From a virus (Duplodnaviria > Heunggongvirae > Uroviricota > Caudoviricetes): a DNA stretch of 11,676 nucleotides. A model generated the notes under the pieces. It did no database searches, had not been told where the DNA came from, and saw only the letters and a program-made list of their open reading frames with translations. This document shows, in pieces, positions 3,774 through 6,545 of this stretch. Each line of letters starts with the position of its first letter. Position 1 is the first letter of the stretch. The DNA lies in IMG/VR virus record IMGVR_UViG_2740892258_000014. One strand, written 5' to 3'. A program made the position numbers and the translations under genes.

Positions 3774-4424
3774 ATGAAAACTCAATTGATGGGAGAGCGC
3801 ATTCGCGCTCGGAGAAAAGAACTCAAGATCAGGCAGGCCGCACTTGGAAAGATGGTCGGCGTGTCTAATGTTGCCATATCTCAGTGGGAACGCTCTGAGA
3901 CAGAGCCAAATGGAGAGAATCTTCTCGCCCTGGCTAATGCGTTGAAGTGTTCCCCTGACTATCTGATGAAAGGAGAGGAAAGTCTTTCAAACATTGCCTA
4001 TCACAGTAGGCATGATCCAAGAGGGTCATACCCTCTGATTAGCTGGGTGAGCGCAGGATGCTGGATGGAAGCTGTAGAACCATATCATAAGCGTGCAATA
4101 GATAACTGGTACGATACAACCGTAGACTGTTCAGAAGATTCGTTTTGGTTGGACGTGAAGGGAGACTCAATGACGGCTCCGGCCGGTCTCAGTATCCCTG
4201 AAGGAATGATAATACTCGTCGATCCTGAAGTAGAGCCGCGTAACGGGAAACTGGTAGTTGCAAAGCTCGAAGGAGAAAACGAGGCAACTTTCAAGAAGTT
4301 AGTTATTGATGCAGGCAGGAAGTTTCTAAAACCACTTAACCCACAATATCCGATGATCGAGATCAACGGAAACTGCAAAATCATCGGCGTAGTTGTCGAT
4401 GCAAAACTAGCAAACCTTCCATAA
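3774..4424 (+). CDS. cI: CI-type prophage repressor: N-terminal HTH (XRE) and C-terminal LexA-like S24 autopeptidase domain
   Basis: 216 aa; HTH region IRQAALGKMVGVSNVAISQWE; candidate Ala-Gly cleavage site in VSAGCW; Ser nucleophile in GDSM and downstream Lys (FKKL) typical of the S24 Ser-Lys dyad. Confidence 0.85.
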   Translation: MKTQLMGERIRARRKELKIRQAALGKMVGVSNVAISQWERSETEPNGENLLALANALKCSPDYLMKGEESLSNIAYHSRHDPRGSYPLISWVSAGCWMEAVEPYHKRAIDNWYDTTVDCSEDSFWLDVKGDSMTAPAGLSIPEGMIILVDPEVEPRNGKLVVAKLEGENEATFKKLVIDAGRKFLKPLNPQYPMIEINGNCKIIGVVVDAKLANLP

Positions 4425-4470: not shown

Positions 4471-4549
4471 AAACTTAAGTTACGAAAGAAAATTTAAGTT
4501 TTCTTCAAAAATACTCTTGACCATTAATTAAAGAGATCTTAAATTTAAG
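4471..4549. promoter_or_regulatory. Left operator/promoter region (OL/pL)
   Basis: Perfect palindromes AACTTAAGTT (4472-4481) and CTTAAATTTAAG (4538-4549) share the CTTAA(A/G) half-site seen in OR; candidate pL -35 TTGACC (4517-4522) with a TTAAAT/TAAATT -10 around 4539-4545 overlapping the palindrome. Confidence 0.55.
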
Positions 4550-4591
4550 CCATCAGCAGGACGCTGGAAGCCAAACGGAAAAGATTGGCAG

Positions 4592-4632
4592 GCTCTTTAA
4601 CATTGATGGGATTGTCCCGCCGAAATGCGGGA
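4592..4632 (+). promoter_or_regulatory. nutL: boxA (GCTCTTTAA) plus boxB hairpin (TCCCGC-CGAAAT-GCGGGA)
   Basis: GCTCTTTAAC at 4592-4601, then 13 nt, then TCCCGCCGAAATGCGGGA at 4615-4632; boxB is identical to the one in nutR. Confidence 0.75.
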
Positions 4633-4945
4633 ACCAAAGAGTAGTTGGCTTTGGGGTGACGTGAAGTGCAGCTGCACGACGGCAACCGGAAGATAAGCAC
4701 CCGGCGCGTCACCGCCAAAGTCAATTCCATAGGCGTTATGCAGCCGCCACCATATTCAAGAAAGCTGCACAAGAGGTAGGAGGATTTATGTGAATACTTA
4801 CATTCAATTGAGAGATTAATTAAATAGAACTGATCGAGCAGAGTCCATAAAGGCTCATAAATGCTCTTCCATCCCCGTCTAATTGGCGGGGAAGGAAACC
4901 ACTTTGTAATAAAAAAATTCCAAAGTTGTTTCATCGGAGGTCAAC

Positions 4946-5245
4946 ATGACAGTAGTCATTACATATCTGGCTGACGATAACGCCAGAAATCGCCGCAGAG
5001 CACGCAGACAGGCTCAACGTGAACAGGCAATGCAAGAACAGCGACTGGCGCGAAAGATTGCGCTAAAGCTCTCTGGTTGCGTCAGAGCAGACAAAGCAGC
5101 ATCACTCGGAAGCCTTCGCTGCAAGAAGGCAGAAGAAGTCGAGAGTAAACAGAATCGTATTTACTACCGCAAGCCACGCAGTGAAATGGGGGTGACTTGT
5201 GTTGGTCGCCAGAAAATGAAATTAGGAAGCAAACCACTTATTTGA
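4946..5245 (+). CDS. N: Antitermination protein N (arginine-rich N-terminus; lambda-N-like C-terminus)
   Basis: 99 aa; N-terminal Arg-rich motif NARNRRRARRQAQREQ; C-terminal YYRKPRSEMGVTCVGRQKMKLGSKPLI resembles the lambda N C-terminus (WYSKPGERGITCSGRQKIKGKSIPLI, from memory); GGAGG SD; preceded by nutL. Confidence 0.8.
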   Translation: MTVVITYLADDNARNRRRARRQAQREQAMQEQRLARKIALKLSGCVRADKAASLGSLRCKKAEEVESKQNRIYYRKPRSEMGVTCVGRQKMKLGSKPLI

Positions 5246-5253
5246 GGTGATAT

Positions 5254-5340
5254 ATGGAAGAAGAATTTGAAGAGTTCGAAGAGCATCCGCAGGATGTGAT
5301 GGAACAATACCAGGACTATCCTTATGACTACGACTATTGA
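5254..5340 (+). CDS. Possible 28-aa highly acidic, Tyr-rich micro-protein (MEEEFEEFEEHPQDVMEQYQDYPYDYDY)
   Basis: ATG 8 nt after the N stop with GAGGTGA SD; its initiation region (AGGTGATATATGGAAGAA) is repeated exactly at the start of the 5583 gene. Below the ORF-track size cutoff; coding status unproven. Confidence 0.25.
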   Translation: MEEEFEEFEEHPQDVMEQYQDYPYDYDY

Positions 5341-5524
5341 TAAGAATCAATGGTGTGGACAATTCAAGCGATGCAATGGATGCAAGCTGCAATCGGAATG
5401 CATGGTTAAGCCTGAAGAAATGTTTCCTGTAATGGAAGATGGGAAATATGTCGATAAATGGGCAATACGAACGACGGCAATGATTGCCAGAGAACTTAGT
5501 AAACAGAATAACAAGGCTGCCTGA
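5324..5524 (+). CDS. ral: Ral-like restriction-alleviation protein (66 aa, Cys-rich)
   Basis: MTTTIDKNQWCGQFKRCNGCKLQSECMVKPEEMF... matches my recollection of lambda Ral (66 aa) and lies just downstream of N; this rests on memory and is unverified. Confidence 0.55.
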   Translation: MTTTIDKNQWCGQFKRCNGCKLQSECMVKPEEMFPVMEDGKYVDKWAIRTTAMIARELSKQNNKAA

Positions 5525-5541
5525 TGGTGGCCTTTATTTTT
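5513..5541 (+). terminator. Intrinsic terminator-like hairpin after the ral-like gene
   Basis: AAGGCTGCC-TGATG-GTGGCCTT (9-bp stem with two G:U pairs; the stop codon is in the loop) followed by TATTTTT. Confidence 0.5.
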
Positions 5542-5582
5542 GTCCGTAAATAATTTCATGCTTATTACAATCAAGGTGATAT

Positions 5583-6005
5583 ATGGAAGAACAAGCAAAC
5601 AAGATTCTCGTAGAACTTCTGCAAAAAGCCAGTAATGGAATAGACGCGGCTGTTTCATTTAGCCAGGCACAGATTCCTGATGTTGTTCGTCAGTTGCTAA
5701 CATGGAGTTTTGTCCATAGCGCACTTTTCCAAGTGGCTGGGTTGTTGCTTTTAATTGCAGCAATGAAACTTCCTAGTTTTGCAAGAACGGCAAGAAATAA
5801 TGGCGAGAGATGGACGTCTTTAGATGGATGTCCAAACGATAGATATTTTATATCTTCGTTTTATTACGATATATGCACTGTATTTGCTCCTATATTTGGC
5901 TCAATTATTGGCGTTTTAATTATTGCCTTCAATTTCGAATGGTTGAAGATTTGGCTTGCACCTAAGTTATTCCTAATTGAATATGCAGCATCATTGGTTA
6001 AGTAA
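5583..6005 (+). CDS. Hypothetical membrane protein with two predicted transmembrane helices (candidate superinfection-exclusion/abortive-infection type)
   Basis: 140 aa; hydrophobic segments LFQVAGLLLLIAAM and APIFGSIIGVLIIAF; AAGGTGA SD; terminator-like hairpins on both sides. Function inferred only from context. Confidence 0.6.
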   Translation: MEEQANKILVELLQKASNGIDAAVSFSQAQIPDVVRQLLTWSFVHSALFQVAGLLLLIAAMKLPSFARTARNNGERWTSLDGCPNDRYFISSFYYDICTVFAPIFGSIIGVLIIAFNFEWLKIWLAPKLFLIEYAASLVK

Positions 6006-6009
6006 TTTC

Positions 6010-6035
6010 AGGCCGCATAGTCGGCCTTTATTTTT
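6010..6035 (+). terminator. Intrinsic terminator after the membrane-protein gene
   Basis: AGGCCG-CATAGT-CGGCCT hairpin followed by TTATTTTT. Confidence 0.65.
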
Positions 6036-6194
6036 GGCATAAACAACAGAATAAACACTGCACTGTGTATTCATTCCAACGAGTGAATACACGGAGCAAT
6101 GTCGCTCGTAACTAAACAGGAGCCGACTTGTTCTGATTGTTGGAAATCTTCTTTGCCCTCCAGTGTGAGGGCAATTTTTTTTGATGGAGGATAT

Positions 6195-6545
6195 ATGAGT
6201 GAAGTAACAGATTTAGTTGTTATTGAAAAAGCAAATGCAATGACTGTATTTCAGTCTGCCGACCAGATTGAAGAAATTCTCCAAAAGGTTGAACGTGAAG
6301 TTATGTCATTTGTGCCTGATATCACAACGGCAAAGGGCAGAAAGGAGATCGCTTCTCTGGCGTATAAAGTTGCGCAGACGAAAACATATCTCGATGGTCT
6401 TGGCAAAGACCTTGTTGCTGAACTGAAGGAAATTCCAAAGCTAATTGATGCCAACCGCAAGACAGTGCGCGATCGCCTTGATGAACTGAAAGCCAAGGCG
6501 CGCCAGCCTCTTACTGATTATGAGGAAGAATCAGGCGCGGATTAA
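6195..6545 (+). CDS. Hypothetical protein (116 aa), upstream partner of the E/R/K-rich ORF
   Basis: Preferred start ATG 6195 with GGAGG SD 5 nt upstream (the track ORF starts at 6099 but that stretch contains a hairpin plus T8 run at 6155-6182). 3' end overlaps the next ORF by 26 nt in a different frame. Confidence 0.55.
   Translation: MSEVTDLVVIEKANAMTVFQSADQIEEILQKVEREVMSFVPDITTAKGRKEIASLAYKVAQTKTYLDGLGKDLVAELKEIPKLIDANRKTVRDRLDELKAKARQPLTDYEEESGAD

Follow-up and report, generated by a model that had tools for sequence, protein, structure and literature searches.

An 18-bp translation-start block that occurs twice in the early-left operon of a P22-like prophage is very probably a mosaic-junction block, the product of ordinary though unusually clean lambdoid mosaicism, and this reading gives the best explanation of the observations as a whole. 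The window, by which we mean the entire 11,676-nt stretch of DNA analyzed here (IMG/VR record IMGVR_UViG_2740892258_000014), shares 99.9% identity with Enterobacteria phage CUS-3, which is a P22-like prophage found in the E. coli K1 strain RS218. On its plus strand, the early-left operon comprises cI, N, orf28, ral, a terminator, a membrane-protein gene, a second terminator and a frameshifted homolog of Sf6 gene 33. One copy of the block, AGGTGATATATGGAAGAA (hereafter block A), heads orf28, a micro-gene of 28 codons, and the other heads the membrane-protein gene. Judged by its pattern of substitutions, orf28 is a conserved gene under strong purifying selection, and we tentatively propose a role for its product in the restriction-alleviation modules in which it is found.

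The repeated start block

Block A is present at 5245-5262 and 5574-5591 on the plus strand, where the initial annotation had reported it, and the match is exact at both sites. No third site was found in the window even when 3 mismatches were allowed. Shuffling 200 times with dinucleotides preserved gave a mean of 0.01 matches, and no shuffle had two or more (0/200). If one mismatch is accepted, the match lengthens to 21 nt.

In both copies, a strong Shine-Dalgarno sequence and a spacer precede the ATG, which is followed by two GAA codons. Copy 1 begins on the final base of the N stop codon (ATT TGA GGT GAT), and its Shine-Dalgarno sequence thus overlaps that stop. The ATG at 5254 opens orf28, whose product (MEEEFEEFEEHPQDVMEQYQDYPYDYDY) has 12 acidic, 0 basic and 5 Tyr residues and fits the earlier description of an acidic, Tyr-rich peptide. 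The 17-nt overlap of orf28 with the next gene is arranged in the same way before ral in lambda and P22, and the identity of that gene, initially called Ral-like, was borne out by a full-length match to the Pfam family Ral (161 bits against a gathering cut-off of 25). In copy 2, the ATG at 5583 opens an open reading frame (ORF) of 140 codons whose product is hydrophobic in two stretches, at about residues 40-67 and 95-126, in agreement with its prediction as a membrane-protein gene.

A second exact direct repeat, the 14-bp GGCCTTTATTTTTG (block B), lies at 5529-5542 and 6023-6036, where it flanks the membrane-gene unit and forms the tails of the terminators of both units. The two units share their ends, and they stand in tandem in CUS-3 as A-orf28-ral-B followed by A-membrane gene-B. 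At 6187-6197, a third gene start in the operon, before the Sf6 gene 33 homolog, has a similar region, GAGGATATATG.

Block A at a mosaic junction

Homologous loci carry the block as well, and a scan of viral contigs for block A returned 132 copies. About 100 of these head orf28 and 23 head the membrane gene; when the fetched phages and the window are counted together with the scanned contigs, the membrane gene is headed by block A in 24 cassette copies. The sequence upstream of the block is highly variable, comprising three types of N 3' end, Sf6 gene 36, Gally gene 31, the lambda/P22 sieB region and the ral terminator. At least 6 upstream partners are combined with 2 downstream units, and all combinations occur.

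Variants that lack one unit end at the repeats. Two contigs (L101 and L093), otherwise collinear with the window, show a clean 329-bp gap exactly between the block A copies, which gives an N-block-membrane gene arrangement, with flanks that are 94-100% identical. A clean 494-bp gap exactly between the two B repeats is seen in HZ41 and lambda, which are without the membrane unit and otherwise collinear with the window. The stacked two-unit arrangement was present in 155 of 5426 complete E. coli genomes. In phage HF4s, a single block A joins the N gene directly to the membrane gene, and the 14 nt that precede copy 2 in the window (GCTTATTACAATCA) are a decayed copy of the HF4s-type N 3' end (GCTTATTACGATTG). 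Moreover, the same T/G polymorphism at block position 7 is found before orf28 and before the membrane gene.

More distant homologs indicate which of the two genes the block belongs to. An Erwinia prophage has CCACTTATTTGAGGTGATgcATGGAAGAg before its orf28 homolog, with the block and the N 3' end kept, and AAGGGGATAGATATGGAAGAC stands in the same position in Proteus. Homologs of the membrane gene in Klebsiella and Enterobacter prophages lie directly after N, the position of the gene in distant genera generally, but with the start regions GGATAAAGAATGAACGAG or GAGGTAAGGAATGAACGAA, which differ in Shine-Dalgarno sequence, spacer and second codon. Within the membrane-protein family, the N-terminus reads MEEQ in 49 proteins, MNEQ in 47 and MD[DE][KR] in 9. 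The comparison of these loci showed block A to be native to the junction of N and orf28: it is native to orf28 because it is kept before orf28 homologs as far as Erwinia, and foreign to the membrane gene because the distant homologs of that gene have other start regions (MNE... and MDD..., not MEE...). Of the origins considered in the initial annotation, a recombination scar from module exchange is thus the one supported by the upstream partners, by the 329-bp and 494-bp indels bounded by repeats and by the start regions of distant homologs.

Several points weigh against this reading or limit it. The minimal efficient pairing segment is 23-27 bp for Red-beta and 31-34 bp for RecA (PMC3945230); block A, at 18 bp (21 with one mismatch), falls below both values, and recombination at this site should therefore be rare. 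We read the block mainly as a scar that is still usable as a rare crossover point, and not as an efficient 'linker'. The indel variants show that exchange occurred, not its mechanism or direction. Finally, the likeness of GAGGATATATG at the third gene start means that the similarity in Shine-Dalgarno sequence and spacer could partly reflect selection for a good start site.

Taken to its end, this last point would have the two copies arise independently and convergently, by selection for an optimal start region and with no recombination at all. Block A does offer 7-8 nt of complementarity to the 3' end of 16S rRNA at near-ideal spacing, and the third gene of the operon fits the same picture. 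Nevertheless, we consider convergence very unlikely. The identity is 18/18 and extends to spacer bases and synonymous codon choices, distant homologs of the membrane gene differ in exactly the elements that would have been selected (Shine-Dalgarno sequence, spacer and second codon), a relic of the N 3' end precedes copy 2, the clean indel variants end at the repeats and the position-7 T/G polymorphism is common to both contexts. A dedicated site-specific recombinase acting on A and B, as in an integron-like gene-cassette system, would account for two stackable units with equal left and right ends, but it appears extremely improbable to us. A is a ribosome-binding site with a start codon and B a terminator tail, both ordinary functional elements; neither has an inverted-repeat core of its own, B being the descending arm and T-run of each terminator hairpin. 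None of the examined loci has a recombinase associated with the units, and the upstream breakpoints differ between phages.

Under the mosaic-junction reading, we infer the following order of events. The membrane gene, a member of the Sf6 gp34 family, would originally have followed N directly. A crossover with an N-block-orf28 phage in the lambdoid gene pool of E. coli and Shigella would have given it the start block of orf28, most likely at the GAA that the two genes have in common as codon 3 or close to it, so that the block replaced the gene's own ribosome-binding site and second codon (MNE... to MEE...). The unit made of the N relic, block A and the membrane gene would later have been placed behind the ral terminator. 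The A copies and the B copies would now be short direct repeats that allow a unit to be lost, gained or exchanged in frame through rare recombination events, either homologous or based on short homology, and both copies of block A would work as translation start sites.

Possible further traces of exchange were noted in related phages. In P22 (L127), GGCAGCAAGCCACAGAGGTGAATATG at 1690-1716, before orf78, resembles the N 3' end/Shine-Dalgarno junction GGCAGCAAACCACTTATTTGAGGTGA, and relics of this junction may precede other accessory genes too. P22 (L127 1300-1500) and lambda (L126 1270-1480) are near-identical from the sieB promoter region through orf28, after which the ral proteins drop to 74% identity within the first ral codons, placing a mosaic break at the orf28/ral overlap.

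orf28 is maintained by selection

The orf28 product is identical to lambda AAA96576.1 (Q38269), and the phrog_16060 match covers residues 1-28 of 28. The gene is unannotated in the CUS-3 record and in RefSeq/PGAP. For a test of selection, we used 75 distinct haplotypes and restricted the count to codons 4-23, the part outside the ral overlap. Of the 33 distinct substitutions in this region, 18 were synonymous, against an expectation of 14% (P=5e-8), and 25 of the 33 fell at codon position 3; the other two frames, taken as controls, carried no signal. A crude dN/dS was about 0.14 for orf28 and roughly 0.28 for ral by the same count, which makes orf28 at least as constrained as its neighbor. No antisense ORF sharing the wobble phase of orf28 was present in the ORF list of the window.

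The reading frame is also maintained across a wide range of phages. The initial annotation had proposed conservation in related prophages as a check on the micro-ORF, and 95 of 98 complete copies proved intact at 28 aa. Among phage isolates, 118 records contain ral and 117 contain orf28, and the two sets break down by taxon in almost the same way. A tblastn search of phages with the peptide gave no match, most probably on account of the low-complexity filter, and distant homologs were therefore sought at the DNA level, with sequence searches and degenerate patterns. In five more genera, Providencia, Proteus, Pantoea, Erwinia and Yokenella, diverged ral genes (65-80% identity) were all accompanied by an overlapping upstream micro-ORF with its own Shine-Dalgarno sequence, a conserved start position (ATG or GTG) and a retained overlap with ral (11 nt in Erwinia). 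Across genera the peptides follow the pattern ME(D/E)D(I/F)EEF(D/E)EHP.D.M.QYQDYPY(D/E).DY, in which 12 positions are invariant, F8, H11, P12, M16, Q18, Y19, Q20, Y22 and Y24 among them. The orf28 distribution spans at least seven genera of Enterobacterales.

Two sets of sequences were kept apart from this evidence. The identical orf28 of P22 does not count as independent evidence of conservation, given the near-identity of the whole segment from the sieB promoter to orf28 with lambda. In addition, a scan of genome contigs (L142-L168) returned for the most part lambda-identical orf28-ral DNA in assemblies of unrelated taxa, for example Pseudoxanthomonas, Nocardioides, Shewanella, Paenibacillus and Bradyrhizobium; many of these contigs were short or of low coverage and several were about 48.5 kb long. 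We treated these matches as lambda contamination and excluded them from the true distribution.

orf28 occurs with and without ral

orf28 homologs were also found in front of other elements than ral. At ten loci (nine viral contigs and one Enterobacterales metagenome-assembled genome), a homolog of the form (M/V)GEDEFEEHPDDDMSQYQDYP(F/Y)DYDY starts inside a Lar-family gene, 8 nt ahead of the stop of that gene, and is followed directly by a terminator, without ral. Four of the Lar-like proteins were scanned (L165, L169, L184 and L186) and scored 34-37 bits with PF14354, for which the cut-off is 28.6. When the search motif is left out of the count, the Lar-linked set shows 11 synonymous and 5 non-synonymous changes (P=5e-7). 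At two further loci (L168 and L189), an orf28-like gene follows N and precedes a phrog_1273 gene. At seven loci (L019, L023, L024, L028, L072, L076 and L099), ral is internally deleted while orf28 and the ral terminator are intact. The ral deletion is recurrent and lies between TGG(A/G)CAAT microhomologies (window equivalent about 5358-5470), leaving an 18-aa remnant, or one of 16 aa in L076.

We also examined the RNA around the ral start, where two hairpins are predicted in the window, the second of which (5328-5358) contains the orf28 stop codon. Folding was significant in E. coli-type and P22-type sequences (z=-3.6 and -3.0), and z was about 0 in the homologous windows of Providencia, Proteus, Pantoea and Erwinia. 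The RNAalifold consensus amounted to a weak 6-bp helix, in which a single pair co-varied, and only in Pantoea and Erwinia. A conserved RNA structure at the ral start was rejected as a general mechanism, the hairpins being significant only in the E. coli-type and P22-type sequences.

These observations bear on the suggestion that orf28 is only a leader or coupling ORF, whose translation would bring ribosomes to the ral start or unfold the RNA there, the peptide itself having no function. The overlap with ral (17 nt, or 11 nt in Erwinia) is kept across genera, the E. coli-type and P22-type hairpins bracket the ral AUG with the orf28 stop in the second of them, and in phage isolates the two genes are found together at a ratio of nearly one to one. 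Yet selection acts at the amino-acid level, with a dN/dS about half of that of ral in the count given above, and the invariance of 12 residues across genera means that the peptide is not free to vary. Homologs exist with a terminator or another gene (phrog_1273) downstream in place of ral, and orf28 stays intact in the seven loci with an internally deleted ral. Furthermore, ral has its own AGGA at -12 to -9, and the hairpins are not conserved. An exclusive leader function is therefore quite unlikely. A coupling of ral translation to that of orf28 is quite possible, but it leaves the conservation of the peptide unexplained; of the earlier proposal of a coupling ORF that controls ral, the conserved overlap stands and the control of ral is at most a secondary role.

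Possible functions of the orf28 peptide

The peptide has no match among Pfam, NCBIfam or PADLOC families, and clues to its function come from its neighbors and its composition. Genes of the orf28 family lie upstream of ral, to which they are coupled by the overlap, or downstream of Lar-family genes. Ral and Lar are unrelated in sequence, and the orf28 peptide is similar to neither. The coupling of one micro-gene family to both suggests, by association, that it functions in restriction alleviation or close to it. Both proteins are believed to enhance or speed de novo methylation by EcoKI, by a mechanism that is unknown (PMC3177214, PMC12707154). The anti-restriction setting that the initial annotation assigned to the micro-ORF is upheld at the level of gene context, through the association with Ral and Lar-family genes.

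We put forward as a possibility, and with some reserve, that the orf28-family peptides (core EEF-x-x-HP-x-D-x-M-x-QYQ-x-Y-x-Y) are unrecognized micro-proteins of type I restriction-alleviation modules, acting either as partners or modulators of Ral and Lar-family proteins or as independent anti-defense peptides that travel along with them. That the peptide would act with or alongside restriction-alleviation proteins is the weakest step of the scheme. A precedent for a phage peptide of fewer than 30 residues that acts on a type I restriction system is Stp of phage T4, which has 26 residues and inhibits the type Ic enzyme EcoprrI. Stp is not known to be acidic and its sequence is unrelated to orf28; the parallel is one of analogy only.

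The extreme composition of the peptide, with a net charge of about -12 in 28 residues (12 acidic, 0 basic), had led to the idea of a DNA mimic or decoy, which would block a DNA-binding defense enzyme such as a type I restriction enzyme in the manner of Ocr or ArdA. The neighboring Ral or Lar-family genes are in line with such a target. However, searches of Pfam, NCBIfam and PADLOC linked the peptide to none of their families, those of known mimics included, and its invariant residues are specific (F, H, P, M, Q and Y) and not charges alone, which is more like a short linear binding motif than an array of charges. At 28 residues, the peptide would also be well below the known DNA mimics in length. 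On balance, DNA mimicry seems unlikely.

Several findings bear on the proposed micro-protein role, and three of them, from a knock-down, a screen and the Rac prophage, argue against a strict requirement for orf28. Knock-down of lambda orf28 by CRISPR interference caused no plaque defect on a strain without type I restriction (PMC10695390). In a screen of single accessory genes, Ral alone raised plaquing and gave a counter-defense phenotype (PMC12373910), so orf28 is apparently not required for Ral activity. In one study, Ral expressed alone was nearly inactive (PMC9410887), a result compatible with a missing partner and also with the modest known effect of Ral. The Lar protein of the Rac prophage (RalR) is without an orf28-like neighbor, the overlapping gene downstream of it being rcbA, which encodes a basic protein; as a counterpart of orf28, Rac rcbA was rejected on account of this basic character and its lack of relationship to orf28. 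Lastly, the Lar genes at the ten Lar-linked loci are close relatives of one another, and a single ancestral association may underlie all ten.

Organization of the locus and neighboring genes

The features of the locus are compiled in Table 1.

Table 1 Features of the CUS-3 early-left operon in the window, with the Lar-linked micro-gene loci of other contigs in the last row
Feature	Position	Strand	Evidence or remarks
cI	3774-4424	+	Early-left operon
Antiterminator gene N, phage 21 type, 99 aa	4946-5245	+	phrog_271 'anti-termination protein N-like', E=1e-36; annotated N in CUS-3
N stop codon TGA	5243-5245	+	Inside the Shine-Dalgarno sequence of cassette copy 1
Cassette copy 1 (block A), orf28 start region	5245-5262	+	Shine-Dalgarno (G)AGGTGAT, spacer, ATG GAA GAA; exact match
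orf28, 28 aa, very acidic, Tyr-rich	5254-5340	+	phrog_16060, E=7e-19; identical to lambda orf28 (lambdap47)
Two predicted RNA hairpins around the ral AUG	5291-5358 (5291-5322, 5328-5358)	+	Minimum free energy -21.2 kcal/mol, z=-3.8
ral, restriction alleviation, 66 aa	5324-5524	+	Pfam PF11058 Ral, E=4e-48; phrog_1055
Intrinsic terminator after ral; tail GGCCTTTATTTTTG (5529-5542) is block B copy 1	5513-5542	+	Terminator scan, repeat search
31-nt spacer; 3' part GCTTATTACAATCA (5560-5573) is a relic of the HF4s-type N 3' end GCTTATTACGATTG	5543-5573	+	Junction listing, alignment
Cassette copy 2 (block A), membrane-protein gene start region	5574-5591	+	Exact match
Membrane protein, 140 aa, Sf6 gene 34 family	5583-6005	+	phrog_3054, E=8e-52
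Intrinsic terminator after the membrane gene; tail GGCCTTTATTTTTG (6023-6036) is block B copy 2	6010-6036	+	Terminator scan; stem 6010-6027, then T-run
Lar-family gene, orf28-like micro-gene and terminator	L165 7686-7992; also L169, L171, L172, L177, L178, L182, L183, L184, L186	- (L165)	PF14354

The membrane protein belongs to a family of which we collected 472 homologs, all of them named 'hypothetical' or 'gene 34 protein'. In the Sf6 gp34 family (the window protein and proteins P0001-P0120), about 45 residues at the N-terminus and FDWLKIWLAPKLYLIEYAASLVK at the C-terminus are conserved, and the middle between them, which includes the membrane helices, is hypervariable; the total lengths range from 120 to 161 aa. 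The AlphaFold model of the protein is all-helical (pLDDT 72) and had no structural match at E<=0.001 in the viral library, and no NCBIfam or PADLOC match was found for the sequence. A promoter scan before the gene detected no sigma-70-like site at 5525-5582, where inspection by eye gave only an 8/12 match, TTGTCC-17-TATTAC.

Two regions beside the units were also noted. At 6099-7164 of the window, the CUS-3 ORFs 6195-6545 and 6520-7164 jointly correspond to a single Sf6 gene 33 / phrog_1376 protein of 322 aa, and PGAP labels the copy in E. coli IHE3034 'TolA, frameshifted'. On the minus strand, a 129-aa ORF at 4545-4934 lies in the cI-N intergenic region, at the CUS-3 boundary sequence bsq5. 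It is a PGAP hypothetical protein in E. coli IHE3034 and may be spurious.

Comparison with known systems

The closest counterpart of the first unit is found in lambda, where orf28 (lambdap47, NP_040623 / AAA96576.1; lambda 34271-34357) encodes the protein identical to that of CUS-3, with the same ral overlap and the same block AGGTGATATATGGAAGAA; this holds for P22 too. N and orf28 are separated by the sieB region in lambda and P22, whereas in CUS-3 orf28 abuts the N stop and the block is repeated before another gene. Mosaicism in lambdoid phages has been attributed to homologous recombination at short conserved boundary sequences at module junctions (PMC3233612). Block A is like these boundary sequences ('bsq' in the Sf6 and CUS-3 records) in being short, in lying at a gene boundary between many flanking modules and in having recombinant junctions within it. 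It is not among the annotated bsq features, and unlike them it is a translation start that reaches 9 nt into the coding sequence and stands in tandem in CUS-3. Since the block extends into the coding sequence, an exchange changes the first residues of the protein.

The second unit can be compared with the morons known from HK97 and HK022, extra gene units with their own terminator that lie between genes adjacent in related phages. The membrane-gene unit is moron-like in that it stands out as a separate insert of 494 bp when lambda and HZ41 are compared with the window, and in that it has its own terminator. Unlike a moron, it is without a detected promoter and is bounded by direct repeats.

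Implications

A gene of 28 codons that current annotation pipelines ignore thus behaves like a selected gene. orf28 was already listed in lambda as 'hypothetical'; what is new is the strong selection that acts on it, its wide distribution and its link to Ral and Lar-family genes. orf28 is physically coupled to two unrelated families annotated as restriction alleviation (Ral and Lar-like), and its study could bear on how Ral and Lar work, a question that dates from 1980. The repeat that heads orf28 and the membrane gene, in turn, provides a clear natural case of lambdoid phages stacking and swapping small accessory units at short shared sequences.

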